From Pseudovirgaria hyperparasitica (lineage: Eukaryota), in assembly GCA_010093815.1 (NCBI GenBank), contig ML996572.1: a stretch of 64,000 nt of DNA; one strand, 5' to 3'. The first letter of the stretch is position 1, and each line of letters begins with the position of its first letter. Positions 1 to 16,643 of this stretch are shown here, in pieces. The translations under genes and the position numbers were made by a program. The notes below the pieces were generated by a model. That model was not told the DNA's origin. It did not search any database and saw nothing but the letters and a program-made list of their open reading frames with translations.

Positions 1-651
1 GCTTGGCGCTTACGGCCTAGCCACATCCGGTATAGCGCGAGAAGAAAACATCAGCTTATGCATATTATTGCGATTGTTATTCTTATTCTTATTATCATCT
101 GCAGCATGCATGGCACTATCCATGGATTTCTTTATTTATCATTCGCTACGATGGGTCCTGCGTCGGTACAGTCAGAGCGGGACTGACACTTGAGATTGGG
201 TATCGATGTTTGACGCGCGCGCTCCTGGCTAGAACTACTTGGACCGACCAATCGACGACCCAACTTCCGACCTCTACCTACAACTCACTTGATAACTTTC
301 TGCAACTACTACTGCATGCATTACGCCGCTCACCCAGAATCTATCCATCATGGATGTCACCAAACTTGGCGGCACAGTCACGCCTGTAATTACTCACTCA
401 CTCACTCTCGCCGCTTCCATCACACCCTCCTCACGCCCTCGACAGGCCTTCCTTGTCCTGTCAGACGCCATCATGGCTCGTGTTTGTTTCACTCGCCAGG
501 CAATCTCGTCTCCACCTGGCGCCTCCATAGTACATAATCAGAACGACCTCCTCCTTCAACCATTCGCCTGCTCTCCATTTGCCCGTCCCTTATCTCACTC
601 GACCTTACCTGCTGCGCGCTCGAGGCGTCGGCTGTGCCATTCACTCCCAGA

Positions 652-1880
652 ATGGGCGCTCTAGACGTCGCCTCAAAAACCTACCTTCACCCTCGTTATC
701 AACGACTGTTCTTTGGCTCGCTCCTGGTCTTACTGTCGATATCTTCTCTCTTTTACCTCAACCGCTCCAGGATTTCGCAGTCCGTTAGCAATGCGTGAGT
801 GCTCTTGCTTCAATCCTCGCAAGTCCTACCCTGACTCTTCGCAGCGTGCACAAATCCAAGGTATCCTACGTGCTACCAGACGCCATCCCACTCAAACCCT
901 CCTTGAGAGACATCATACAGGCCCTTTACGCTCCGACTCTACAGCCAATCACCGCTCCCACCTTCACTGACCCCGTCGACGGCGAGGTATTCCATATTCC
1001 GCAACACCCAATCTGGACAAAATCTCTCGGCAAGCGGCTATGCCTCGTCGACATCGATAACCGGCCCTTTGATGGCGAGAATGAGCTTATGGGGAAAGTA
1101 CCTACGCCATTCGACTGGACAACTTTCTCCAACACACCCTCTGGAATGCTTGGCCACTACTTCTACGCCATGATCCATGGCTACGACTACAAATTCATTC
1201 GCACTACCGACTACCCCGACCGCGCTCCCTACTGGACCAAAATTCCCGCCCTCGCCGACCATCTGCACGACTACGACTTTGTCGTCTCCATAGACGCCGA
1301 TGCCCAGATCCGCTTCCCCCAGCTCCCTTTCGAGTGGCTCCTCAACCGATGGAACGTGACCAAAGAGACCTCCATGACCATGGCTCTCGACCCCGATGAT
1401 CCACCAAACCACGACGTTCACGGTCGCCTACACGACAACGCCGGCTTCATCGTCGCTCAGAACCTCCCGCGCACTCACGACCTCCTCAAGACCTGGGCCG
1501 CGTGCCCCGACGAGCCCTCTCCCGAATTCGAGAACTGTGCTCGTTGGAAACATCCCTGGCCCGCTGAGCAGGCCGCTTTTGCAGAATACATTCGCACCAT
1601 ATACAACGAACCAAACGATCTGAATGAGATACCGTGCGACGAAGCGAATGGCACGCCTGACTTCACTCCCAACGGCGAGTTTCAGCATGGCTGCAAGGGG
1701 AAGTTTGTGCGCCATCACACCCTGAGCAAGGATGCTATCAAAGAAACCATCCAAAATGGCCATATGGGCGTTATCATGGGGAGAATGCACCAAGACTTCA
1801 ACGAGCACAAGGAGACGAACACCTATATGAGGAAGACGAACAATCTGACCAGGACGGACAGCGGTGATGTCATTGACTAG
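652..1880 (+). CDS. Glycosyltransferase family 34-like (GMA12/MNN10 type) type II membrane protein
   Basis: ATG 652 gives MGALDVASKTYLHPRYQR plus a hydrophobic anchor (LFFGSLLVLLSISSLFYL). Intron 795-844 (GTGAGT..CTGAC..GCAG) joins in frame to the 795..1880 ORF. Motifs YAMIHGYDY, WTKIPAL, DxD (SIDADA), NAGFIV and WPAEQAAF are typical of GT34. Confidence 0.8.
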
Positions 1881-2387
1881 GCGCATCCGTGCACTCGGCC
1901 TATTATGTCTTGCACGCCTTAAAAGTCCTTTGCTTTGCCTCCGCCCCCGGGATTCCCCGTTCGGGCTCGGAGCTCTCGGCTGAAAATTAACGCTCGAGGG
2001 AACAAAGACGCTGGAAGCCGGCTTTTCAACAATGTACACATAACATACTCTTTGACTGTCTTGGCTTACATTTACTCTTGGATCCCTGTCCCGTTTATAA
2101 GTACGCTTCATTGTTAGCATGGAGATGCGGTCTCGCTTCTGTACATTCATATCGCTTTAGATACCCCCGTTGGATATATAGACTGTATACATTACTCTTC
2201 CATCACGTGTCTTGCTCTCCGGTAGTTACTCGTGTGCAATGTACTCTAGAATATTCAAAAATAATCCATATGCTTTTACATTGTGTCGTAGTAGCGTAGC
2301 TGAAGTAGAGACGAGATGTACTTATATGAACAGATAGGAACCAGGAAGCTTAGATGGGTGAATGTAGACAGAATGCAAAAGTCATGA

Positions 2388-3564
2388 CTAGATCCTGTTT
2401 CGAGTCAGTACGTGTCGTCTTAATGTCAATAGGTCCATATAACATACGCTAGATTCCCGAGCGCGTTAAGAATATCACCTCCATCCACAATGTGATTCAC
2501 GATTACATGCTTCAAGTTTTCGAACTCCTCCAGCTCCGGCTGACGTTCCGCAACAATCGTGATCTCACGCTCATTCCAAGCTTCGACCTGTGCTACTGAT
2601 AGAAATCGTCAGCTCGAGACATTACCTACCCTCCCTGCTTCCCTGGACCACACTTACAAGTGAATTGCTTCCCAAAACAACTCAGGATCGCGGAATCGTC
2701 GCGGGCTCGGGGCTTCAAAGCCAGAAACATAATCGCCACAGGAAGAGCCCAGACCCCTCCAAAGCACTTTTTCGCAATCTTGATCAGACGGCTGGGCACT
2801 AGGCGATCAGTCTGCTCCGGACCGTCGCTATCCTCAAAAAACTCTCTACGCAGCGCAAGAACCCGATTTGCCCATGACGACCAGGTCGATTTGTCTCCCA
2901 GTTGAGGATACACCTTGAACAGTCCATACTGCACCATGCTCCCGAAATCCGTAACCGCACACCGGCCCGCCACATCCATCCTCCCCTGCGAAATGTACTC
3001 GCCGAAATAAAACAATTTGTTCAGAGCCTTTTTCTTCGTCCGAAGTCCCCAGAGTCCCTCTAGCTCCACCCTGCGCTCCTCCGATACCCTGTCATCCGCC
3101 TCGAACGCAGCCAGCAGATCCAGATCCTTGATGAACTGCCGCGGCTCAAATGCTGCAGTGTCAATAACCATGAGGTTCACCTCCGACAAATCAACCTTCT
3201 CCTTGGAGGCCTTGTAGAAGCCGTACTGCAGCGCGAAAAGCAGCGAGCTCGTCCAACTGACCAAACTGCATGTGTGTTCGTGGCCCCGTCTCCATCTTAG
3301 ATGACGTTCAACCATGAAGGCGGCGGCACTGGGGTCAGTAGCGAAGACGTCTCGTGGTTGTCGGGTGGTCTTGTATTTGTGCATGCAGTGCGGGAGGATC
3401 TCGGTTGCGCTCGTGCTGCCGGCGGATGCGGGCGAGAAGACGCGGAAGAGGTATTGTGGGAGACGGCTCGTTGGGAAGTCGGCCATGCTGGACCTTTGGG
3501 AGGGGGTGGGTGAGAAGAGTAAGGCGGGTGGGACGACTGCGGTGGGGGACTGGATGTCTGACAT
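2388..3564 (-). CDS. Uncharacterised fungal protein with an ADP-ribosyltransferase-like R/S-x-S/E motif order (recalled as DUF7587-like)
   Basis: 312-aa ORF with PQYLFRV, LVSWTSSLLFALQY and FGEYISQG. A GTAAGT donor near 2657 and a CTGAC..CAG acceptor near 2596 extend it (LAQVEAWNEREITIVAERQPELEEF...). A probable further short intron ends at TAG 2388-2390. The 3' end is tentative. Confidence 0.6.
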
Positions 3565-3623
3565 TTTGTTGTGCTTGTGGGAGGTTCGTTAGTGGGAGGG
3601 AAGGAAGAGCAGCGCTTGGGAGG

Positions 3624-3676
3624 AGTGAGTGAGTGAGTGAGTGAGTGAGTGAGGGAGGGATGGATGGAGGGATGGG
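3624..3676. repeat. (GAGT)n / (GGAT)n microsatellite
   Basis: gagtgagtgagtgagt... followed by gggatggatgg, read directly. Confidence 0.85.
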
Positions 3677-5555
3677 TTGATGTCATGCTGTGCTTTTACA
3701 CATTCGCAGTCGAGGACGAGGAGTAGGAGTAGGAGTAGTAGAACTTACATGCAAACACCCTACAAAAACCCTCGTAAACACAAACAAGTCCAAGACACCG
3801 GTATTCTCAAAACAAAGCAAACCGGGTCAAAGAAGCAGCATTTTATACATTATACCCTGCTGCCTCCCCTCTACCCCAGGCACAGCCTTGTGTGCGCCTC
3901 CTGCACACAGATCACCTTGACCGGTTCCGAAGCGACGAGGGTGTCAAGCATCCCCGCACAAGGCAGACATGCAGGTATTTAACAGAGCCAATGGAGGATG
4001 AATACGTTTTCGTTCGCCTTGTTTTAGGGGTTTTCTGGTCTTGTGGGTTGTTTGTGAGTCATAGGGGTCTTTGATTGCTGTTGGTGTGCTTGCGTGTGGT
4101 ATGTGGATGGGTGTGCTATACTGCTAGCCATCGATGTGTGAGGTGGTTTGGCTGGCGTGTTTGGTTGAGATTGGGTTTACGCGTCGTTTTGTTTGGGACA
4201 GTTGTGTTCAACATGTAGTATTTCGGACTGAATGTTGGTAGAGATTCTGCGAGGAGTTTCGATCCTATGCTGGATTTGATTCTCACTAGTCGATGACACG
4301 CTGTATGATTCCATGATGTATTCAAGACACTATATTCCATGTATCATACATAGAAGCTCGTTTTAGCACTACCAATTCCTTCTGAGTAGTCCCCTCGAGA
4401 AAGAGAGCATATTCGATCAAGTGGTTTCTGTAACATCTACATGTTCGAACCCGATATTATACTTAACCTCCTGCCGCTTGTTTGACTGAGCATCATATAA
4501 GAAGTCAGAGTCTCAAATACCTGAGGCAGGAATTGATGATACAAACCCAGACCTGCGTACGATACCACACCTTAAATCAACCCAAAGTAACCCGACCGAA
4601 CCCCTATTCCACTCCTACAGCCATCAAGGAGGATTGCAGAATATTATCAGCAACACAACCTCCCTTCTACGCATCTTACCTAGCTGCTTCACGCCGTTTA
4701 TTATCTCCATCACCAGTCCTGCCCTTAATGAACCATGCCACGCCTGTGCATCGCTCGTTTCTCTCGCATACCTCTGTTATGGCTTTTACACGTTTGTGAT
4801 CCGTCCTGGAAATGCAGATTATGGTTTTCTGAGGGGTTGAGATGTGTGCTAGGTAAGTAGGGAGTGTCAGGGGAGACCTCGGGCTGTCTGTCTATTTAAG
4901 CAGTGTAGGTGCGAGGAGGTGATTTGTTGCTGTTTGGATAAGCTCGTATTCAGATGTATATGCGGCATTAGTGAGCGCATCATATCTGAACTTCACGGGA
5001 GAGTGTGAATGATTAAGTGAAGAGTAGGATGGTATCTTTGAGATGATTTGGGAGAAGTATTGTGATTGTTGTAGACTCTGGTATAAAATGGGATAGAACA
5101 TTGTCATGGAGAAGAAAAAGAGTAGGGGAGGGGGGTGAAAAGGCCGGTTGCTCAAAGCCGTTGTATATAACACCGAGAGATGTTTCTATCGATGAATACT
5201 AGCCCGGAGGCTGGTAAGCTAGTGCACAGCTGAACACTTGTAGTTTTCGAACCTCACATCCGCGCCGATGTGAACCTTGGGCTTGACAAGTGGAGAGAAT
5301 GGACCATAAGTAATGATGTAGGTGGCAGATGGCAGGTGGCAGATGGAGAAAGTGAACTGAGGGAAAGAGTGGAATTTTTCTGGTTAATGGAGATCTAACC
5401 TGTCTCCGCGACGCATGCCATACCAAAGCATGAATACCTATCCTAATGGTTACCATGTATGTTTATGTCGGCCGTTTCAGATTCTGTCCTTTCTCAATCA
5501 TATTCAGGAGTGATACGCGTATTACCCCTTGATCGGCAGCCACACATGATGGGTC

Positions 5556-6387
5556 TCATGTAGGCGCAGAGCCATCCTCAGTTTGGTGAGCACCAAACGT
5601 GCTTTCTGCAGAGAATTTTTTGAGTTTCTCAAGACGCTTTGACGGCTGCTCATGACCCTTGGTGGAATTTGCGTCCGGATGGGTCATCAAAAGCTCTCGG
5701 GACAGCTCTGGAAGGTGTTCCAAGAGCATCGAGAAGCGGTCGTAGTGACGAAGCTTGCTCAGTTGTGTCGCCGCACGATGTAAGATATGCTTGCGCAAAT
5801 TGTCTTCACTGACTGCCGATCGTTCTGGCAAATCATGAAAAACCATCTCCAGCAAGGCGCACAATGTGTGATCCGCTAGCGTCACACTGGAGAATCCGTA
5901 GGCAAACTTGGCGTATGCAGCCCTCTGAAACTCGCTAGCTTGGAGATAGTCACCCAAAGCATACAATTTAACCAGTGTCACATACACGGTTTCATGAAGG
6001 ACAGCATCGTTAAAGAGCCAGCCGTCACGGTAGAGGTATTCGACGTAGAAGCCGAAAAGATAAGGGTCTAAGCTTTCGAGTCGGATTTCTGCTTCTGCAG
6101 CTTCTTGCATGGGAACTCGAAGAGCGTGTCTTACGTATTCCGAGTCGGCTTCAGCTAAAGCCACATGGATGAGGTACGCAATACGATTGTCTGCTGGGCC
6201 AACCACAAACTTTACAATCGGAGATGACAGACACCTAGCAAGGCGTCAGCCGTTACATTTCAGACAGGTGCGGAACATACTCTGAGAACTTGAGTTTCGT
6301 TGTTTTCTCTGACCTGCTGAGAAGCCAAGATCGGACTGCATTCGCATCACTGTCGGCGACGACCAGCTTCGGCTTCAATAACGACAT
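5556..6387 (-). CDS. BTB/POZ domain protein
   Basis: ATG 6387 (MSLLKPKLVV...). Intron 6235-6280 (GTATGT..CTGAC..TAG). Then SSPIVKFVVG..YLIHVALA..SEYVR..PMQEA..IRL..FGFYVEYLY..LVKLYALGDYLQ, the usual fungal BTB pattern. Confidence 0.8.
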
Positions 6388-6506
6388 CGCAACGGTAGGG
6401 TGTGTATTTGAAGAATATTTAGAGTGAAGATGGTGCGTTTGTGTGTGGTACCTCATGCCGACGAATTTGAACGTAAGTTGGGGTAATGCTCACGTACCTA
6501 TGACCG

Positions 6507-6537
6507 TTTGTACGACCTTTTGTACGACCTTTTGTAC
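6507..6537. repeat. Short tandem repeat (TTTGTACGACCT) x~2.6
   Basis: tttgtacgacct tttgtacgacct tttgtac, upstream of the BTB gene. Confidence 0.7.
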
Positions 6538-6797
6538 AGAGCCAAGACTAAGTGATTTCGGACCAGTCATTCTCTTAGACCAATTGTTATTTTCGACTAA
6601 TGTACCCCTGAACACATGTCTCACGATGTGAATTCGGTAGAACACTGAAGTCATTCACATTCACGACTCGCGGCATAACATTAGCACATGTACACCGACT
6701 ACAGTCGACAAAGGGAACTGATTGATCGCTTATATACACAATCTATCGTACCATCCTAGTCCCCTTCTTCACATGATCCAGCAACACAGTGTTACAT

Positions 6798-7219
6798 TTA
6801 TAGCTTGCTGATGAACATGCGGGCGGCCATGAGGCGGACCTTCTGGGGAAGGAGGTACTTGGAGAAAACGTAGATCAGGGTCGGGAGCAGGATCCAGGCA
6901 AACGTGACCTCGTTGACGAAGAAAAAGGGGATGAGCTGGGGCATAGCAGACTGGAGAGCGACCTGCGAAGTATCATTAACATCGGTTCTCCCTTCCCGCT
7001 TGACATGCGAAGCTCCAAGCTTACCATCTTGCCTGCCTTCTTCTCCTCGGGCAAAGCGACACGGGTGATCTTTGCGGGCGCATTCTTGGTAGGTTGGGAG
7101 ACGCGAGTTTGAGTGCTGAAAGATGCGATGGCGGCAGGACGGACGATGGCCGACTGTTGAATGACCGGCTGGCGTGGGAGCGCCCGGGCGAGAGGACGGA
7201 GGAATCGAGAGGCAGACAT
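6798..7219 (-). CDS. ATP8: Nuclear-encoded ATP synthase F0 subunit 8 with an N-terminal mitochondrial presequence
   Basis: Exon 1 7219-7025 (MSASRFLRPLARALPRQP...KKAGKM). Intron 7024-6963 (GTAAGC..GTTAAT..CGCAG). Exon 2 6962-6798 (VALQSA-MPQLIPFFFVNEVTFAWILLPTLIYVFSKYLLPQKVRLMAARMFISKL*). The last 48 aa match the fungal Atp8 pattern (MPQLxPFxF...FSKYxLP...RxFISKL). Confidence 0.92.
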
Positions 7220-7730
7220 TGTCGGCACTGCGCGAACGGGTTAGAGACGTCAATTGAGGAATCACTCTTCCGAGGATCACCAGGGGAGGTCGTACCGAGC
7301 TGACGAGAGACTGCAGAAGATGGATTGAGATGAGTGGAGTGTTTTGTTCGAGCTTCGGTGAAGTGCTAAGGGTTGACGACAAGTTCGATGTGCCAAGACG
7401 TTATCTGGTCACGTGAACTTGACTACGCTTCTGGCATTTTATGCCTTGCTGCCTTACGCATCGGGCCATCAACACTTGCACCTCGTGCATTACGCACGAT
7501 CACCCTCCTCACTCTACATCGCATTGTGGATTTCGTGGCAAGCTCGTGCTCAGGGTCAGGTATTGCTGCAGCCTTTCCCGCGCTTCAACATGCGATAGCG
7601 CAGTGCAGTGTTCCAGCAAAGGCAGCAAAGGCTCGCGCGTATATTGCCGGGATTCAGGGAGCCACTATAAAACTCTCCTGGCAGCATCGTTATTCTTGTA
7701 GACGCAGCTCAGAACATCAACTTACCCACT

Positions 7731-9659
7731 ATGGGCTACTGGGAAGTCAAATGTCGATTCTGTGGCGTAGGCTTCAACATTGGTCGCTCGAGACGTCCCA
7801 CTGAGCCTCGCTACAAAGGGTGGCTCAACACTGCTGATATGATTGGCGTGCCACAAGGTATTCGCAAAAATTGCGTCAAGGGTAAATGTTGGGTGATCAT
7901 TCGCAGGGAGGGCCCGTGTCTTCCAGATAATGTCCAATTGAAGGATATGATATCGACTCAAGACATCGACGACAATGACGATCCAGCAGACAGCGATTAC
8001 ATGCTGGACCAAGACGACCAGGAAGATGAGTACGAAGAGCTTGAGTTCATTTCCGATGACGAGATGATCAGCGATGGCGAATATGGTGATGCTGAAGAGT
8101 CCGAAGAGATTATGGGGGACGGCGTCAAGACAGACGCAGATCGCAGGGAATCGCAAAACACAAATGGAATACCTCATCAACCGAAGAGTATCAACGACAA
8201 TGTCCCGCATTCTCCAAGCAATCACAGCACCCAAGCGTGGACTTTCGGATGGTGCCGAAGCACCCCAAAGTTTCAGGTAATGATAGATCAGACCATCGAT
8301 GACCGCAAGACCTGGCTCCCTGCACAAAAATTCTACAAAGCCAAAACGCCTTTGTACTACGATCGTATGCACGAAATCGAGCACACGACTGAAAGTGCAG
8401 ACTGCTCGACTGTGACCGCATATAACGGCAATCTCATCGAGTTCGAAGAAATGAGGGACTGCAATGTCTTTCAAGGAATGGTCCGCCGACAACCCAATTG
8501 GGCCCCGGAATCCGATGATATCGACTACGAAAGCGCGAGCCGATATGTATTCACAGGACTGTGTGGTCACATGTCGTCAACGGATTTGCGATTCTTCCCG
8601 CACCTGCGCCCTATACGCTACGGACAAGATAGTGTCTTCTGCAACGAGTATGTCTGGGATCCGAACGACAATTATGCCATGCCGTTCCATCCTTGGTGCT
8701 TTGATATATACGCTAGGCTGTCTCGTCGGTGTAATGGCGTTGTCGACGTCAACGGCCTGATGGACTGGCATTATTTCGTTGACGGCCCCAGGTATGGGGA
8801 ACCAACGTACCGTGCAGACGGAAATGTAGACGAAGACGATCGTCCCTACTCCTGGGGTCATCACGAACATGTGAGAGGGTGTGGGAGCGATTTTTGGCTC
8901 CATCCGAAAGGGACAGAGTACCTTGCAGCGAATCCTTTGTTTGTCCCAAAGTTGCCAGCTCTGCTACAGATGGCCACTGAAACGAAGCCTGACTTTGATC
9001 CTAGAGGAAGCCCATTCGCCGAGTCTAAGGATGATGGACTACAGACCGATGACTTCTCACGACTCCCGTGGGAGTTGAAGATGGAGATTCTCTCGCATCT
9101 CTCGTCGAAGAACATTGCGAACTTGCGCCTAGCCAGCCGCACCTTCAGACACTTACCCAACACGCTATGGAAACATCTTCTGATGAAAGAGATGCCATGG
9201 CTATGGGAAGTATGGTGTGACGACGAGCCCTATTTCTGGGCCGCAGTAGCGTTCGGTAACATCGCACAATCCTACATCGACAACGAGCGCGACCTGGCTA
9301 GATACGATGAACAGTCTGCCGAAATAGATCGCATTAATCGTATAATTGAAGAAGCATACGTTCGCGAAAACCCAGCGTTTGTCGGACGGTGGAAAAAAGC
9401 AAGCGCAGAAGCTCTAGGTGAGCGACCGGTTCTGTCACAGGACTGGCGATCCAAGGCCAGTCCTGTCTCTGGTAAGTTGCCGTCCAGCAAGACGAACTGG
9501 TATTCGCTCTACACACTCATCACGCGACATTGGAAAGATTTGAAGGGTTTGAGGAACAGAGCGCGAATATGGACTGATATTGAACGAATGATGGGTATGA
9601 TCGCAGAATCAAGAGAGCGCGGTCTCATTTCGCCGCTTGGAGGAGACCCGACGTTTTGA
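7731..9659 (+). CDS. F-box domain protein
   Basis: 642-aa ORF with an F-box (FSRLPWELKMEILSHLSSKNIANLRLASRTF), N-terminal CxxCG, PFHPWCF, and a C-terminal KGLRNRARIW motif common in this fungal family. Confidence 0.8.
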   Translation: MGYWEVKCRFCGVGFNIGRSRRPTEPRYKGWLNTADMIGVPQGIRKNCVKGKCWVIIRREGPCLPDNVQLKDMISTQDIDDNDDPADSDYMLDQDDQEDEYEELEFISDDEMISDGEYGDAEESEEIMGDGVKTDADRRESQNTNGIPHQPKSINDNVPHSPSNHSTQAWTFGWCRSTPKFQVMIDQTIDDRKTWLPAQKFYKAKTPLYYDRMHEIEHTTESADCSTVTAYNGNLIEFEEMRDCNVFQGMVRRQPNWAPESDDIDYESASRYVFTGLCGHMSSTDLRFFPHLRPIRYGQDSVFCNEYVWDPNDNYAMPFHPWCFDIYARLSRRCNGVVDVNGLMDWHYFVDGPRYGEPTYRADGNVDEDDRPYSWGHHEHVRGCGSDFWLHPKGTEYLAANPLFVPKLPALLQMATETKPDFDPRGSPFAESKDDGLQTDDFSRLPWELKMEILSHLSSKNIANLRLASRTFRHLPNTLWKHLLMKEMPWLWEVWCDDEPYFWAAVAFGNIAQSYIDNERDLARYDEQSAEIDRINRIIEEAYVRENPAFVGRWKKASAEALGERPVLSQDWRSKASPVSGKLPSSKTNWYSLYTLITRHWKDLKGLRNRARIWTDIERMMGMIAESRERGLISPLGGDPTF

Positions 9660-10298
9660 TCAATCACTTGGTTTGCATTGCATACAGGTCTGATAGACTT
9701 ACCGTATGGCCATACGTTCAAACGGTCATCTTGCTCTCTCCGTCGACCAATCGATTCTGTGCCTCGAGTGTCTTGCTGAACCAAATGTGAAAACTACTTC
9801 TACTCCCACTTTCACCGTTTGAATCAAGTCTAAAGTGTCCGTAACAAGATGCTAAACGACAAACAAACAATCATGCCACCAAAGACGACAAGTACTACTA
9901 CCAACAGTCGTAGATTATATATTTGAGAAGCATCATCTCTACTCACTCCCAATGACCCCACTTCCAATACACATTCACAGGCTGTCAAGCTCAGACGAGA
10001 CTTGGCTCTCCAATGGGATCACGAGATACCGCGTACTCTGCCTCTCATCACAATCAGACATCTCAGGACTTCTTCCACACAAAACACAAAACACATGCCA
10101 CGGCTCATTCCATTTCCATCTATGCCCTAGAAGCAAAACACCAATCTACACCTACAAAACACCAGCCATACAACACCAAACAATCCAAAACACCAGCCCA
10201 ACAAGCAACCCCCTGGTATCACGCTCCAATCCCAAAAAAAACCCAAATTACACCATACCCCCAGAAAGTCAACAAACGCCAGAGCAAAAGGATCCTGA

Positions 10299-13200
10299 TC
10301 AAAAACTAAGCTCATCCCCACTCATCTCATCGTCAAGCATCATGCGCGTCTGCACAGCACCCCGTGCCGCCGACAATCTACGAATAGCACGATGAGCGCG
10401 CTCCTTTGAGCGAGAATCAGGTCTGGTGGTATCTGCGCGGGTCTTATGCGAGTATGTCGCGCGTAGCGAGCGGGATGGTATGACTGGCATTATGAGCTCG
10501 TCTTCTTCGCTGGCACTCTCATTCAGGATGTCGTTTGTGTGGTAGGTCGACTTTGATGCAGATTTGCGATTATCTTGGCGGACAGAAGTGTAGCTGGTTT
10601 GGCTCTTGAGACCCCGAGTTGGTCGTCGGCAGGATCGGCGTGAAGAAGTTGTGCTGGTAGAGGAGAAGGAGGTGTCAAGATCGATCATGTCACTCACGCG
10701 CTTTGAGCGACGAACGGGAGCCTTGTAGATTCTTAGATCGTCATCGGTTTGTATATCGTCCTGCTCCACGGCTTCTTCTTCGTTATCGTCAGAATTGTCG
10801 GAACAAGATGTTTCCAGCGATGTCCTCCGGCGTTTGGCTCTTTGATCGCGCATAACTTGCGCAAAGCTTCGCTTCTTGGTGTTGCGTGGCTGCTGATGCC
10901 TTGTTTGCTGAGAGTCGTCCTCTGAGACCGACGTTACGGACTCGTCTGACTCGTCATCTGAATCGATCGATGATGTCCCACTCGACGTGGGAGATTCTGC
11001 CAATGAGATCTTCCGGGCAAGAGAAGGGCGTTTCCGCGGGAGCGTCGGCTGTGGTGCTAAAATTGGACGAGTGTAAATAACGACTTGTGGCGACATATAG
11101 TGCCTAGATGGAGAGACAGCTTCCAGTCTGCACTCGTACACGCTCATTTCCCGGCTTTGGAAGTCTTGCCGTTCCACAACGGGCGTCGACACTGACAGAC
11201 TACTTGACAGCGACGACTCCGGTTCGTCTTCAACCAGCGGTTTGTCGAGATTCTTAGCGCCTTTGCGCGCGACCGCTGCAGGAGTGCACATAATCCATTC
11301 CTCGATGCCTTCCTCCCATCGGTAGCCCTGCTCTTGCTCGTCACCCTCTGAGCCAGAATCGCTCGTGGGCTCTGGGTCTTCTGACGACTCCGAGGATGGA
11401 ACATCGAGTGTGAGGCCATGACCCGAAAGCTTCATCGTCTTTTCCAATGATTTTGCATACTGGAAGTGCACATTGTCCTGTGAGTTTTCAGAAAACTCAA
11501 TCGCAGCACGATACACTATACGGTCCATGAAATGAACATTTTTAGGCTCTGCAGAGGCAGAAACTATCGTGAGCGATTGCAACAATCCCTTCAACGTATC
11601 AAAATGATCTTTCTGCGTAACGTGCCCGTATGAGCGGGCGATAGAGTTCAGGACCTTTGATATTGCGTCAATAACTGATGTGTTCTTGACAAAATCGCCA
11701 GTGGCGAGGCGCCTGAGCTCGCCGATCCGGGGAATCAAGTGCTCAGAGATCCCCATGGAGTATGGGTCACTTGTCGACAAGAGTAAGTCAGCGACCAGAA
11801 GTGTACAAGCGCGTTCTGTGTGCGTTGTTATGACTGACTGAGGCCCTCCTGGCATTCTTGACTTCTTGGTCTTTGCCAGTTCTATCGAGAACGATTGGCA
11901 GAAGTAGTGCAGTAAGCGCAGGTACCTTCCGGGATATGGTTGGTCCTCTCCTTGAGTGCTGGTTCCGGAAAGACCGGCACAGGTAAAGATGGTAAGCATA
12001 CTGTTGACCGTGTTGTTGAGAGCACCGCGTACAGATGGCTTCACGGGGTTTCTCCGAGCCTCTGTGGCATTATGGTCTGCCCACTGGGATTCGCTATCCG
12101 TACATGGGTTCGGCGGCGCGAGACCAAAGCTTCTCAGAAGAACGACATCTAGTAGTTCAAGCGCTGGGCCCAATGAAGACTCATGTGAGTTGATCGACTT
12201 GATGATCTTGGCCCATATCGGCAGAATTGCCTTTGTAGCCATCCACTCAACCGGGAGCTTCCCGCTTCTCAGCAAATTAGCCATCGTTCGATAGAACAAC
12301 GACCAGCTTCCTGATGACTCCACATAGTTTCGGAATAACGACAAGATCGCATGATCCGGTTCCTCAAAAATGTCGTCTTGAGGATGATTAGGCACTTGCA
12401 TGTTCGGCTGCAGAGTCATCAGTGCAACTGAAAGCATCTCCTCGCCGGCATCCCATGCTTTAGTCTTGGTGCACAGTTTAGCAAGCTCAAGCAAGAGAGT
12501 CTGAGGTAGAACAGTATCCCGTAACGCTTCCGTCACCATTTTGATTGCAGAAGCGCGCACAACATGACCCAGCGCTTGGCGTCCATTCTCGTCGCGAAGG
12601 GCCAAATGCTCTATATCATCGTATATTCTCACTGCCGCGTCCTCGGTGTCATCATCGTCCTCCTCTTTCTGCCAGTACTCTTCAAGCTCGATGTAAGCTG
12701 GAACTTGACGCAAGCATGTCGCCCTGAGAGATCTCGTGCCTTTCCGTTCGCGCTCCGGGCCGTACGCCGCGGTTGCCTCCAGCACTTTCTCCAGCCCAGC
12801 ATATGCACCGCTGATATGAGCAAATGTGTCGGTACTCGTCTGTTTCCTGACTGCCTTTAGGTGCTCTTTTTGTTGTACGTGGAGAGGCTTACGGCCGCGC
12901 TGCGGGGCCTGCTGGGGAGATATGTAGCGAGGACTCTCCTCGATGTGCTGCAGCGTCCGGGCAATGAAGGGTGTAGGGACGTTAATCTCGCCGGGTGGTC
13001 CCATGGGAGGCTTCGACTTTGGCCGCATTGGAGTTCGAACATGTCTCCCAGGTCGAGAGGTGGCCTTGTATGTCCTGAGAGGTTTCGCTTCCGGTACCCA
13101 TTCTAGATCGTCCTTCGTGTCACTAGTCTTCTTCCAAGTCCTTCGACGCGGTGATGTAAGCGCTGCCTGGCATTCCTCCTCTTTCGCCTGTTCCTTTCTC

Positions 13201-13334
13201 GGCTCTGGCTTCTGCGTTCTCGCGTTGTCTGCTGCTTTCCTCAGCGCAGTTAAGCGTGAAGAGATCGGTCGCAGTAGTCTGTTGCAGCGCGCAGTGGTCC
13301 AAGGGATCTGGTCGTCGGTGACATGCTTAACCAT
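10299..13334 (-). CDS. Uncharacterised 1011-aa protein, probably nuclear
   Basis: Long intact ORF with N-terminal WTTARCNRLLRPISSRL, a helical core, YRWEEGIEEWI and an S/D/R-rich disordered tail with basic clusters. Confidence 0.75.
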   Translation of the reverse strand: MVKHVTDDQIPWTTARCNRLLRPISSRLTALRKAADNARTQKPEPRKEQAKEEECQAALTSPRRRTWKKTSDTKDDLEWVPEAKPLRTYKATSRPGRHVRTPMRPKSKPPMGPPGEINVPTPFIARTLQHIEESPRYISPQQAPQRGRKPLHVQQKEHLKAVRKQTSTDTFAHISGAYAGLEKVLEATAAYGPERERKGTRSLRATCLRQVPAYIELEEYWQKEEDDDDTEDAAVRIYDDIEHLALRDENGRQALGHVVRASAIKMVTEALRDTVLPQTLLLELAKLCTKTKAWDAGEEMLSVALMTLQPNMQVPNHPQDDIFEEPDHAILSLFRNYVESSGSWSLFYRTMANLLRSGKLPVEWMATKAILPIWAKIIKSINSHESSLGPALELLDVVLLRSFGLAPPNPCTDSESQWADHNATEARRNPVKPSVRGALNNTVNSMLTIFTCAGLSGTSTQGEDQPYPGRYLRLLHYFCQSFSIELAKTKKSRMPGGPQSVITTHTERACTLLVADLLLSTSDPYSMGISEHLIPRIGELRRLATGDFVKNTSVIDAISKVLNSIARSYGHVTQKDHFDTLKGLLQSLTIVSASAEPKNVHFMDRIVYRAAIEFSENSQDNVHFQYAKSLEKTMKLSGHGLTLDVPSSESSEDPEPTSDSGSEGDEQEQGYRWEEGIEEWIMCTPAAVARKGAKNLDKPLVEDEPESSLSSSLSVSTPVVERQDFQSREMSVYECRLEAVSPSRHYMSPQVVIYTRPILAPQPTLPRKRPSLARKISLAESPTSSGTSSIDSDDESDESVTSVSEDDSQQTRHQQPRNTKKRSFAQVMRDQRAKRRRTSLETSCSDNSDDNEEEAVEQDDIQTDDDLRIYKAPVRRSKRVSDMIDLDTSFSSTSTTSSRRSCRRPTRGLKSQTSYTSVRQDNRKSASKSTYHTNDILNESASEEDELIMPVIPSRSLRATYSHKTRADTTRPDSRSKERAHRAIRRLSAARGAVQTRMMLDDEMSGDELSF

Positions 13335-14506
13335 GGCAAAATATATTCAAAATACCAATTAAACATACTAGAGCATGATCTATGCTATCTATGCTGCGGT
13401 ATCCAAAAGGGTGAATGGTGAAGTAAAGAATATCTCGTGTTGACAGTGAGTTGTGATGTGCCGTCGCAAGGGTAAACAAGACAATATCGGGGCTGTCGGA
13501 GCTAACTTAACCAAAGGGGGAAAGGCTAGCTCGGGCGAGGTTCAGCCCTATCTCAACGACCGTGCCACACGTTGGCAACAGGCCATTCACTTCGTTCGAC
13601 CATGACCAAGGGCAAGACATGATCTACACTAGGTATTGGGTCTAGGCCAGGCTGCCACGCGGCGAAACAGCATCATGCGCAGCGCTGCACCACTTTGACT
13701 ATACCCCCAAGGCCTTGGCGAATTCATGCCAACTGGCCTTGATTGTGTCCCGGAAAGTAGCGACGAAAAGGCATTCTATTCTAGAGGCGAGACACGGTTT
13801 CATCACATATCCAAGGCAACTCTTAGAATTGAACCCAGGATAAACCACTACAATACAGAGTATGGATGGGATTAAAGTAGACTTTCAATATGTATAAAGG
13901 CTAATACAACGGTCTATAAAACGACAAGCGACGAGCCTGACACTCAGATCTCGCTCAGAAAACGTCTCAGTATAGCTCTAGAATATTATGCTCTCTGCCC
14001 TGAAGCATGTTCCCCCATATCCCACTTTGTAAGGTATGTAAAGAGAAGGATCCATCCCAAAAAGAAATGTTCCAAAGCGATTGAGAAACCAAACACATCC
14101 TCCTCCTACCGCGACATTAGTCCCGAAAATAAAGATAATGATCGACGACGTATTTACACGTGCGAGCCAATTAACTATCATGCATCAGTATTCGGATGCT
14201 TTCGTCAAGTCGTGTGAACCATGCCCCCCCATACATAGCGAAGGAAAAGCCGGATGATACAAGTCAAGCCGAGGCGAAAGGAAATGGTTTATGGAAGGAC
14301 TCGAATGACTATTTCTAAGTCACCGCTTTCGTGGAATGGCGGGCACTACGCATCGAATAGTAACGCGAAACGTCTGATCCCTTGGCTAAGCACCAAAAGG
14401 TAGATGAGGAGCAAGCACAAGGCGCTCGGAGAATGATAAAAAAGAATGACTGATGCCAGGCCCGATAGTACAGCTAGACATGGCAGAACGCTCCAACAGC
14501 TATCGT

Positions 14507-16643
14507 CTAGATAATTTCGGCAAGCGTCGATCTCACACCCCTGAGCCCAACATGTTCTGCATCTGCCGACGAAGCGGGTATACAATAGACGTCAGAGCCT
14601 GGAGCTGACATTCTCGTCAACGTAGCTTCGGACGACGAGCGTTGTAGCAGTGGAGGTGACGGGTCGAACGATGTCTCCTTGCTGGTAGGATACGAGGTGG
14701 ACGTCGTTGTAGATGCCGACGATACCGTTCGAGCACGAATCTGATGGGACGTTTCGCGACGGCGTTTCGGTCCGTCTTTGACCTTGGGATGCGTGTGACA
14801 CTGCAAGAAACACCAAATTAGGATCTGTCAAAACCCCACCCGGGCATGAATGCATGAGCCATCCTGCTAAGCTTACCTTGTACGCATGCCGAAACCACGT
14901 CGTGCCTTTCTTCTTGCTGCTCACCAACGCGATCCAATCGCCGCAGCTCCCGCAAAGGCCCTCCCAGACATCCAGATTCCCCTCCGTGCGGCGTGTCTCC
15001 TGGGGTTTCTGGAACGCGACCCCGGTAGCGGCGCTTACGCCGTGCGTAAAGGACTTGTCGTACCAGAACGCGCTGTTCTTGAGGACTAGCCATCGTCCGG
15101 GTTTGCAGAGACCGCACCAGCCCTCACGTTTGTTGCCGTGGCCACGTACCCACCGCGGGGTGTAAAGGTCGCCACTGAAGCGCAGATCTTGTTCATGGGG
15201 GATCAGGTCTGGGTCGGACGGGTGCATGTCCGACTCGGGTGGATTGGATGGCTCTTCCTGGAGTGAGGAATATAGGTCAGGTGGATCGGATAGGTCAGCG
15301 AAATGCGCTGCGTAGCCTCCATGCCGGTCTGCATTACTCTGTAAGAGCCTGAATAGATTTTGGGATGGCACAGGCCGGGGAATCTCCAGTGGATACTGGT
15401 GACTGTCTGGTCCGTAGTAACTCGGCATACTTGATTGTACATGATTTGGCTGGTAAGGATTCGAGCAACTTGGGACTATGGAGTGAGAATTAATTTGGGC
15501 GTGAATGTGTGATTGAGACAGCGCGTGTTGGTACTGCTGTTGACATTGTTGTTGGTACTGATTATGGGCTGGACTGTAGATCATTCGCTGTGGTGTTCCG
15601 GCATAAGCCCCTACAGGATATGACGCATACTGGGCTAAAGAAACTTGCGTAGCTTGCGGTATCTCTTCGCTTTCCTTGACCTGTCCGCTCTGCACACCCT
15701 GTCCGTTTTGCGAAGGCTGGCTGGTCAGGGGCCGGCTGTAAGGGGATAATCGACCCTGTATATGGCTAAAATGTCGCGATGGGATAGAGGAAGGTGCGGA
15801 GGTTGATGCATGAGATGCTGCAGTTGTAGACCATCGCTTGAGACGGTTCTTATCGATCGTATAGGGTGACGTGCGCATAGTCATACGCGAAGACGGAGAT
15901 GCTTTCGATCTATGTCCGGGACGGAAAGCCTCATCGCTCCTTGACGAGGATGCCGGAGACACAAGCATTGCACTTTGATGAACCCCGCCCCATCCATCAG
16001 TTTCTGTTATGCGGCTTTGAGTCTCTGAGCCGGAGAGATCTTCAAAGTTGAGCACTTCGGCCAGAGCTCCACAGCTCGACATTGAGAAAGAGGACTCGGA
16101 TATCCGTCTCGAGTTCACGTTGAAGGTTGATAGGTCACCGTCAAGATCGGCTCCCAAGAACCTTCTCAGATCTATCACAGTTCCATCATCATCTGTGCCT
16201 AACCAGTTCTGACCAAGCTCTGACACGTCGCCATCGAGTGGAGGAAATGGTATGTCTCCTGATCCTTTGTAGCCCCACGGCGCTGGCATTTGGCTGCTAT
16301 CAAAGTCTGACTTCATCCCATGTATGCTGGTAACAGGAGGATTGAACAAGCTCGCGTCGATGAAGGAATTCTGGATATCCAGACTGGGTCCGGTAGTGCA
16401 TTCGACCAACTCGGAAGAAGTTACAGCTTCCGATGACGTCTGATCCTTGGATGACCTCACACAGACCTGCTCTTGTTTAACAACAGCGTCTACTCTGTCA
16501 TGATTCTTGTTCTCGCTCAGGTCTCCAGTGTCGTCCGTCGTAGTGGAATCTGAGCCAGGACATTGTGTCGCGGAGTGGATCGTGTTTGTTTGGTGATCGT
16601 CATGAAAGTACTCGGGGTACTGTTGCTGTTGTTGTTGGGCCAT
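14507..16643 (-). CDS. Rua1-like transcription regulator (DUF4451/Rua1 C-terminal domain)
   Basis: DLYTPRWVRGHGNKREGWCGLCKPGRWLVLKNSAFWYDKSFTHG...WEGLCGSC...WFRHAYK, then an intron of about 14802-14877 (GTAAGC..CAG), then CHTHPK.... The N-terminus is Q/S-rich. An additional upstream exon is possible. Confidence 0.8.

Follow-up and report, generated by a model that had tools for sequence, protein, structure and literature searches.

Transfer of the mitochondrial atp8 gene to the nucleus is rare, being put by one review at fewer than six times across eukaryotes, natural transfers among them (PMC10809612). The closest described cases come from the Pleosporales. The mitogenome of Stemphylium lycopersici is reported to lack atp8 and atp9, for which nuclear homologues with N-terminal extensions and TargetP-predicted targeting peptides are described, and the mitogenomes of D. 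pinodes, P. nodorum and S. bambusicola are said there to lack both as well (PMC5626475). Both genes are stated to be absent from all reported Pleosporales mitogenomes (PMC8956966), and a nuclear atp8 is stated for Shiraia-like species (PMC11881002). In a further report atp8 is given as absent in 9 of 20 mitogenomes analysed (PMC7225605), and the genes listed for the Macrophomina mitogenome include atp6 and atp9 and no atp8 (PMC8451660). Nuclear ATP9 (subunit c) of Neurospora and Podospora is another small hydrophobic Fo subunit moved to the nucleus, in filamentous ascomycetes, with a presequence of about 65 aa (PMC3420929), and in engineered allotopic ATP8 of yeast and human cells a nuclear gene with a presequence rescues the loss of the mitochondrial gene (PMC3420929, PMC10809612); recoded yeast ATP8 is described as functioning from the nucleus with an added targeting sequence alone (PMC3420929). 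Here, a locus on the minus strand of a 64-kb stretch (the window, 64,000 nucleotides) of Pseudovirgaria hyperparasitica, a member of the Acrospermales in the Dothideomycetes, was analysed. It very probably is a nuclear ATP8 gene, orthologous to the Pleosporales nuclear atp8, whose 119-aa precursor would be imported into mitochondria and inserted into the inner membrane via the matrix. By its sequence, the gene encodes a leader of 71 aa, basic and amphipathic, to which a complete subunit 8 (Atp8, 48 aa) of the mitochondrial F1Fo ATP synthase is joined.

The last 48 aa matched the Pfam family PF05933 (Fun_ATP-synt_8) over model positions 1-48 of 48 with 71.8 bits (cut-off 26.1; E = 5.3e-20), which is far beyond chance, and aligned at positions 1-48 with positions 1-48 of yeast Atp8 in the solved ATP synthase (chain 6b2z_A, E = 1.3e-11). 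An initial annotation made from the letters of the window had read this part as a complete fungal Atp8 starting at the ancestral M-P-Q-L and had named the profile search as a check, and both reading and check were borne out. Besides its M-P-Q-L start, the unit comprises one hydrophobic helix (top 19-residue Kyte-Doolittle window, 1.63) and a basic C-terminal part. It is clearly of mitochondrial descent, and its presence in the Fo part of the ATP synthase is predicted, while exon 1, which precedes it, matched no Pfam family. Compared with the mitochondrially encoded fungal Atp8 (A6L; PDB 6b2z), the same 48-aa unit is thus found end to end, with the same start and basic tail, but here it is nuclear, written in GC-rich codons of the standard code and made as a precursor, and its helix is less hydrophobic (1.63 versus a mean of 2.16) and carries Pro21.

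As the initial annotation had claimed, the gene is contained in no single open reading frame (ORF): its coding exons lie in different frames, exon 1 in the stop-to-stop ORF 6875..7240 and exon 2 in ORF 6798..7400, and the spliced product is 119 aa long. Splicing was followed in contigs of three public sequencing runs, of which X2 and X3 derive from one sample of unrecorded kind and X1 from another study. X2 and X3 yielded one contig each, with 0 differences from the window, that skips both 62 nt (6962|7025) and 68 nt (7227|7296) and otherwise follows the genome colinearly from about 7335 to a point past 6400; a 208-nt X1 contig with 5 differences from the window also skips the 62-nt intron. 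All skipped stretches are bounded by GT..AG on the gene strand, the ends of the intron in the 5′ untranslated region (5′ UTR) reading CT..AC on the plus strand. The predicted 7025/6962 junction was accordingly seen exactly in contigs of three runs from two studies, the kind of run being unrecorded, so that sequence and contigs agree on the 62-nt GTAAGC..CAG intron (7024-6963), and the suspected 5′-UTR intron (7295-7228) was removed in contigs of two runs from one sample. The gene consists of three exons, and each of its two introns is missing from contigs. These contigs were taken as transcript assemblies because DNA with both introns cleanly out and the same flanks is very unlikely.

A deposited NCBI protein of Pseudovirgaria hyperparasitica (P0003, 119 aa, with PF05933 precomputed) is 100% identical to the spliced product, the product of the second exon being identical to its residues 1-65; it is named 'hypothetical protein' at NCBI and 'ATP synthase protein 8' in UniRef. 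Since P0003 equals the spliced product letter for letter, the public gene model already uses this junction. Two expectations therefore fell away, namely that the gene would be mis-annotated and that a nuclear ATP8 would be a novelty, the latter being overstated given the published nuclear atp8 with a targeting peptide (PMC5626475, PMC11881002). The finding is sound and not new: the protein is in the databases, and genes of its kind have been published.

The setting of the gene is nuclear in composition and neighbourhood. GC content is 0.46-0.56 in 1-kb steps over window positions 1-16000, the third codon positions of exon 2 have a GC content (GC3) of 0.84, and Trp, which occurs once, is encoded by TGG, just as nuclear-style GC-rich codons had been read before; for 72 mitochondrial-type metagenome loci the atp8 ORF has a GC content of 0.19-0.29. 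The identical 119-aa protein is located on a 1.66-Mb contig, the upstream neighbour on the opposite strand (7671-9659) carries an F-box, and an Rfam scan of the 64-kb window gave 0 matches (no tRNA, rRNA or other RNA family). Nei-Gojobori dN/dS over 48 codons of the window and eight nuclear-type loci yielded a median of 0.20 (34 finite values in 36 pairs; maximum 0.54) and 0.16-0.39 in the eight pairs that include the window, rough values from few codons that support purifying selection among the nuclear orthologues at a dN/dS of about 0.2, whereas a value near 1 had been named in advance as speaking against a functional gene. A nuclear mitochondrial DNA segment (NUMT) or decaying pseudogene, that is, a functionless mitochondrial fragment in nuclear DNA, would account for the mitochondrial descent of the 48-aa unit, but it is extremely unlikely in view of the intact frame with nuclear codon bias, the leader exon with two introns that get removed, the low dN/dS, the conservation of leader and intron position across orders and the lack of any further mitochondrial gene or RNA nearby. 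The marks of a NUMT, i.e. mitochondrial-like composition, neutral decay and missing processing signals, were not found. The earlier claim of a functional gene transfer rather than a NUMT is upheld by nuclear composition, neighbours, removed introns, purifying selection and leader features together, which support a nuclear ATP8 gene that has a leader exon and looks functional.

The leader, with a net charge of +10, contains 13 A, 7 S, 7 R and 7 P; acidic residues begin at position 58, with none in the first 57, and F-S-T occupies residues 34-36, so that the R/S/A-rich stretch free of acidic residues over about 56 aa and the FST motif of the initial annotation were both recovered. A hydrophobic moment of 0.96 at residues 4-14 was matched by 1% of 2000 shuffles. 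Being basic and amphipathic, the leader appears to have the features of a matrix-targeting presequence, nearly the whole of which is encoded by exon 7025..7227. The conserved L-[QK]-[SA]-[AG] directly before M-P-Q-L may be relevant to processing. No cleavage site is proposed, since inspection by eye showed no arginine adjoining M-P-Q-L at any of the positions −2, −3 and −10. As to the donor of the leader, exon 1 compared with longer proteins matched only the deposited protein itself (62 candidates), a weak negative as this word-based search also missed the orthologous leaders.

Relatives were collected by a search with exon 2, which gave 40 proteins at E ≤0.001 among 44 candidates, all with PF05933 precomputed. 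Nuclear-type precursors occur in Pleosporales, Venturia, Verruconis, Tothia, Lepidopterella, Mytilinidion and Coniosporium, further in Trichodelitschia, Aulographum, Eremomyces and Lasiodiplodia/Macrophomina (107 aa in Macrophomina), and also in Vermiconidia and Extremus of the Extremaceae, in a metagenome-assembled genome (MAG) labelled Pyrenula (Eurotiomycetes) and in Ascodesmis (Pezizomycetes). Alignment of 30 nuclear forms displayed a common N-terminal pattern M-[SN]-x-x-R-[FLI]-x-R-P-x-A-R-A and had 18 columns that were invariant, those of M-P-Q-L included. Residues 1-65 of the window's protein were further compared with 18 other leaders by Smith-Waterman alignment with 1000 shuffles. The z-score was at least 7.0 for 13 of the 18 nuclear forms, with 0 of 1000 shuffles reaching the score, and these 13 include Pleosporales, Venturiales, Mytilinidiales, Botryosphaeriales and Trichodelitschia; the remaining five were weaker (Vermiconidia 4.5, a JGI protein 3.1, Aulographum 2.3, Extremus 2.1 and Ascodesmis 2.1).

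The intron that separates leader and Atp8 unit recurs among these relatives. In the window, 18 nt separate its 3′ end from the downstream start codon of the ancestral atp8. Eighty metagenome loci, kept from 528 confirmed relatives, fell into eight GC-rich nuclear-type loci (L001-L008, GC 0.46-0.62) and 72 others with a GC content of 0.21-0.31. An AG sits 18 nt before the M-P-Q-L ATG in seven of the eight GC-rich loci and 21 nt before it in L005; in all eight it is preceded by a branch-site-like CTAAC, CTAAT, TTAAC or CTGAT, and in five of the eight the in-frame reading ends at that TAG. In addition, four database models from Pleosporales-like sources (P0015, P0025, P0032 and P0034) carry, relative to spliced relatives, an insertion exactly at the intron site, which looks as expected for a retained intron. 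Judged by these alignments, the intron position is conserved, exon 1 corresponding to the leader and the last exon to six linker codons plus the old mitochondrial ORF. A single, ancient event most likely accounts for both the transfer and the recruitment of the leader exon, because leader sequence and intron position are common to many Dothideomycete orders.

Set beside the Pleosporales nuclear atp8 (Stemphylium lycopersici TW65_04673 and the Shiraia-like genes), the gene is alike in being nuclear, with an N-terminal extension and a complete C-terminal Atp8 unit as described there (PMC5626475, PMC11881002), and the intron stands at the same place. The leader is homologous to those of three Pleosporales forms (Pyrenochaeta, Curvularia and Lophiotrema; z 7.4-9.0), the Stemphylium protein not being in the compared set. 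It differs in coming from the Acrospermales and in a leader about 20 aa longer (119 versus 99-101 aa in total) with an A-S-F-S-T stretch, which the Pleosporales do not have and which has a similar form in Venturia, Tothia and Coniosporium. Nuclear ATP9 is a different subunit with two helices and stems from a separate transfer event, and the engineered ATP8 genes are recoded native sequences behind borrowed leaders, while here leader, linker, intron and helix were shaped by natural selection.

The mature part of the nuclear forms also departs from the mitochondrial ones. For the comparison, 39 distinct nuclear-type and 68 mitochondrial-type mature sequences were used; as nuclear-type we counted loci with GC >0.42, or extensions of at least 40 aa that start M-x(1-4)-R and are R/A/S/P-rich and N/I/K/Y-poor, as mitochondrial-type AT-rich loci or proteins of ≤52 aa beginning M-P-Q-L, and other matches were dropped. 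The mean of the top hydrophobic 19-residue window was 1.76 in the nuclear-type (n = 39) versus 2.16 in the mitochondrial-type forms (n = 68), and Pro21 was present in 90% versus 3%, both contrasts counting relatives; R-F at positions 34-35 occurred in 3% versus 68%. Glu12 was considered as a mark of the nuclear form and rejected, being found in 40% of the mitochondrial-type forms as well.

These changes bear on the route by which the protein would reach the membrane. Prolines within hydrophobic stretches are described as disfavouring arrest in TIM23 and favouring passage to the matrix (PMC2171449). As proposed here, the precursor would, after its synthesis in the cytosol, be led by its presequence through TOM and TIM23, and the matrix processing peptidase would cut the leader off, in either one step or two. 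The mature part probably passes fully into the matrix, and Oxa1 would then insert it from that side ('conservative sorting'), a route that would also be that of mitochondrially made Atp8. In yeast, the N-terminus of Atp8 faces the intermembrane space and the C-terminus the matrix. The nuclear ATP9 of Neurospora and Podospora probably reaches the membrane from the matrix side. Conservative sorting is preferred because it would leave the N-terminus of Atp8 in the intermembrane space, where it has to be, whereas stop-transfer would orient the protein wrongly; the lower helix hydrophobicity and Pro21 of the nuclear forms are compatible with it.

The same substitutions could be read as signs of a paralogue with a new role, an imported Atp8-like protein that no longer serves as an ATP synthase subunit. 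Nothing supports this directly, the nuclear forms differing by Pro21 and by Q-R or Q-K in place of R-F at 34-35, and it is very unlikely, for the 18 invariant columns across 30 nuclear forms include M-P-Q-L and the basic C-terminal part and the match to yeast Atp8 spans the full length. Moreover, the mitochondrial copy is gone in related lineages, and so the nuclear gene must supply the subunit there.

How the two genomes came to divide atp8 between them is suggested by the Extremaceae. Vermiconidia is placed in this family, within the Mycosphaerellales, by taxonomy, and Extremus is taken by us to belong to it too; their precursors (P0053 and P0191 of Vermiconidia calcicola, P0200 of Extremus antarcticus) are 116-117 aa long and encoded on contigs of 197-452 kb. 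With a Vermiconidia query for a nuclear Atp8 in Mycosphaerellaceae, only Extremaceae appeared among the named matches (32 candidates), which is weak evidence of absence. Other members of the Mycosphaerellales are reported to retain mitochondrial atp8 (PMC5626475, PMC7999263). Tentatively, and as one possible course among others, there may have been one transfer before most Dothideomycete orders split. A mitochondrial atp8 fragment would have come to lie directly 3′ of an intron, and the host exon ahead of it would have turned into the presequence, the junction still being marked by the phase-0 intron 18 nt before the old ATG. The copies would then have coexisted for long and been lost lineage by lineage, leaving the mitochondrial copy in Mycosphaerellaceae and the nuclear one in Extremaceae, Pleosporales, Botryosphaeriales and others, and Pseudovirgaria may hold both. 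Two precursors outside the Dothideomycetes touch on the depth of the transfer. The 131-aa precursor of the MAG labelled Pyrenula ochraceoflavens (P0073, Eurotiomycetes) has a clearly homologous leader (z 8.0), by which either the transfer predates the class or the bin is mislabelled. That of Ascodesmis nigricans (P0195, Pezizomycetes; 105 aa, on a 2.97-Mb contig) has weak leader similarity (z 2.1) and may be an independent transfer.

If both copies were kept, dual coding could follow, i.e. a functional nuclear gene and an intact mitochondrial atp8 coexisting in Pseudovirgaria, for example with stage-specific use. Such use of two copies is known for atp9 in some filamentous fungi. Nuclear-type Atp8 in Extremaceae, inside an order whose other members keep the mitochondrial gene, fits long coexistence, and the list of mitogenomes without atp8 in PMC7999263 omits Pseudovirgaria. 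That hint is, however, an omission, the available text of this source and of its preprint giving no statement that atp8 is present, and lineages for which both genomes are reported (Pleosporales, Macrophomina) have the nuclear gene without a mitochondrial one. On balance, dual coding is improbable.

Five points weigh against the reading of the locus as an imported and matrix-inserted nuclear ATP8 product. None of the three runs is recorded as RNA, their contigs being read by us as transcript assemblies. By-eye inspection gave no clear arginine motif (R-2, R-3 or R-10) beside M-P-Q-L. The nuclear forms belong mostly to one clade, so that the p-values of the hydrophobicity and Pro21 contrasts are overstated, and with 48 codons and synonymous sites near saturation in many pairs the dN/dS values are approximate. 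Finally, the Pseudovirgaria mitogenome was annotated in PMC7999263, where, as far as its text is available, only S. bambusicola, P. nodorum and D. pinodes are listed as without atp8 and atp9; by that omission, a mitochondrial atp8 copy may still be present in Pseudovirgaria, whereas the word 'relocated' in the initial annotation would imply its loss from mtDNA. The nuclear ATP8 reading nevertheless is held with high confidence.

The coordinates of the gene are collected in Table 1, in which 7335 is a contig end and not a mapped transcription start.

Table 1. Parts of the nuclear ATP8 gene in the window, in the order of transcription
Feature	Position	Strand	Evidence
First non-coding exon (5′ UTR)	7296..7335	-	X2 and X3 contigs cover 7296-7335 and 7296-7334, joined to 7227
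5′-UTR intron, 68 nt, GTACGA...CTAAC...CAG	7228..7295	-	skipped in one contig each of X2 and X3
Second exon (exon 1 of the coding region): 8 nt of 5′ UTR (7227-7220) and codons 1-65 (7219-7025), start codon ATG at 7219-7217	7025..7227	-	translation, contig coverage
Coding-region intron, 62 nt, phase 0, GTAAGC...CAG	6963..7024	-	skipped in X1, X2 and X3 contigs
Last coding exon (exon 2): 54 codons (6962-6801), i.e. six linker codons V-A-L-Q-S-A and the 48-codon Atp8 unit, then TAA (6800-6798)	6798..6962	-	translation, contigs
Atp8 unit itself (48 aa, M-P-Q-L through S-K-L), which stems from the mitochondrial gene	6801..6944	-	PF05933, yeast Atp8 alignment

On either side of the gene, the contigs gave further observations. 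Downstream, the transcript contigs extend beyond 6798, as 3′ UTR or into the next gene; the spliced ones go 1-2 kb past the atp8 stop (X3 to about 4406) and span a minus-strand ORF of 229 aa (5556-6245), for which a Pfam search gave no match. This run-on (4406-6797) can be explained by a long 3′ UTR, by overlap between transcripts or by merging in the assembly. Upstream, the F-box ORF (7671-9659, plus strand) stands head to head with atp8. Its contigs start at 7498 (X2) and 7519 (X3), the ends of the atp8 and F-box contigs being about 160-185 nt apart (7335-7519), and this gap suggests a shared bidirectional promoter region.

The search for relatives also brought up irregular database entries. 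Many models of this gene in other fungi are faulty (P0015, P0025, P0032, P0034, P0047, P0029 and P0058) and show a retained intron, an extension upstream of the true start or a frame-shift; the deposited model of the window's gene is correct. A 178-aa metagenomic ORF (P0043/P0196) holds three identical mitochondrial-type Atp8 units with the same 17-aa spacer, and is either a tandem array or a short-read assembly artefact. Two fungal Atp8 domain proteins deposited as 'MAG: Rickettsiales bacterium' (P0212 and P0214) probably are from fungal mitochondrial contigs binned as bacteria. In P0221 and P0071, a part resembling a homing endonuclease shares the frame of atp8; P0221 carries PF00961 and PF05933, and the upstream part of P0071 is endonuclease-like by eye; both presumably are mitochondrial read-through or fusion calls.

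For the distribution of the gene in this breadth, for the shared intron and for the Pro21 change, no published description was found in the literature searched. One origin, the conserved junction intron, Pro21 and the occurrence in Extremaceae, as they appear from the comparisons, are a modest addition to what is published. The suggestion that the gene is a natural model for allotopic ATP8 expression stands in part: the case is natural, but its added value is small, because ATP8 is reported to work already from the nucleus in yeast, where the gene was recoded, and in human cells (PMC3420929, PMC10809612). Fungal nuclear ATP8 genes as a guide for allotopic expression did not occur among the literature matches listed. 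A practical gain is the product name 'ATP synthase subunit 8, mitochondrial precursor' in place of 'hypothetical protein', and the locus also invites a small comparative study that would cover distribution, intron, Pro21 and possible dual coding. As transfers of atp8 to the nucleus are rare, this well-supported natural case, with its intact leader exon, conserved junction intron and softened helix, cleanly illustrates how a gene for a hydrophobic product can move from an organelle to the nucleus and function there.

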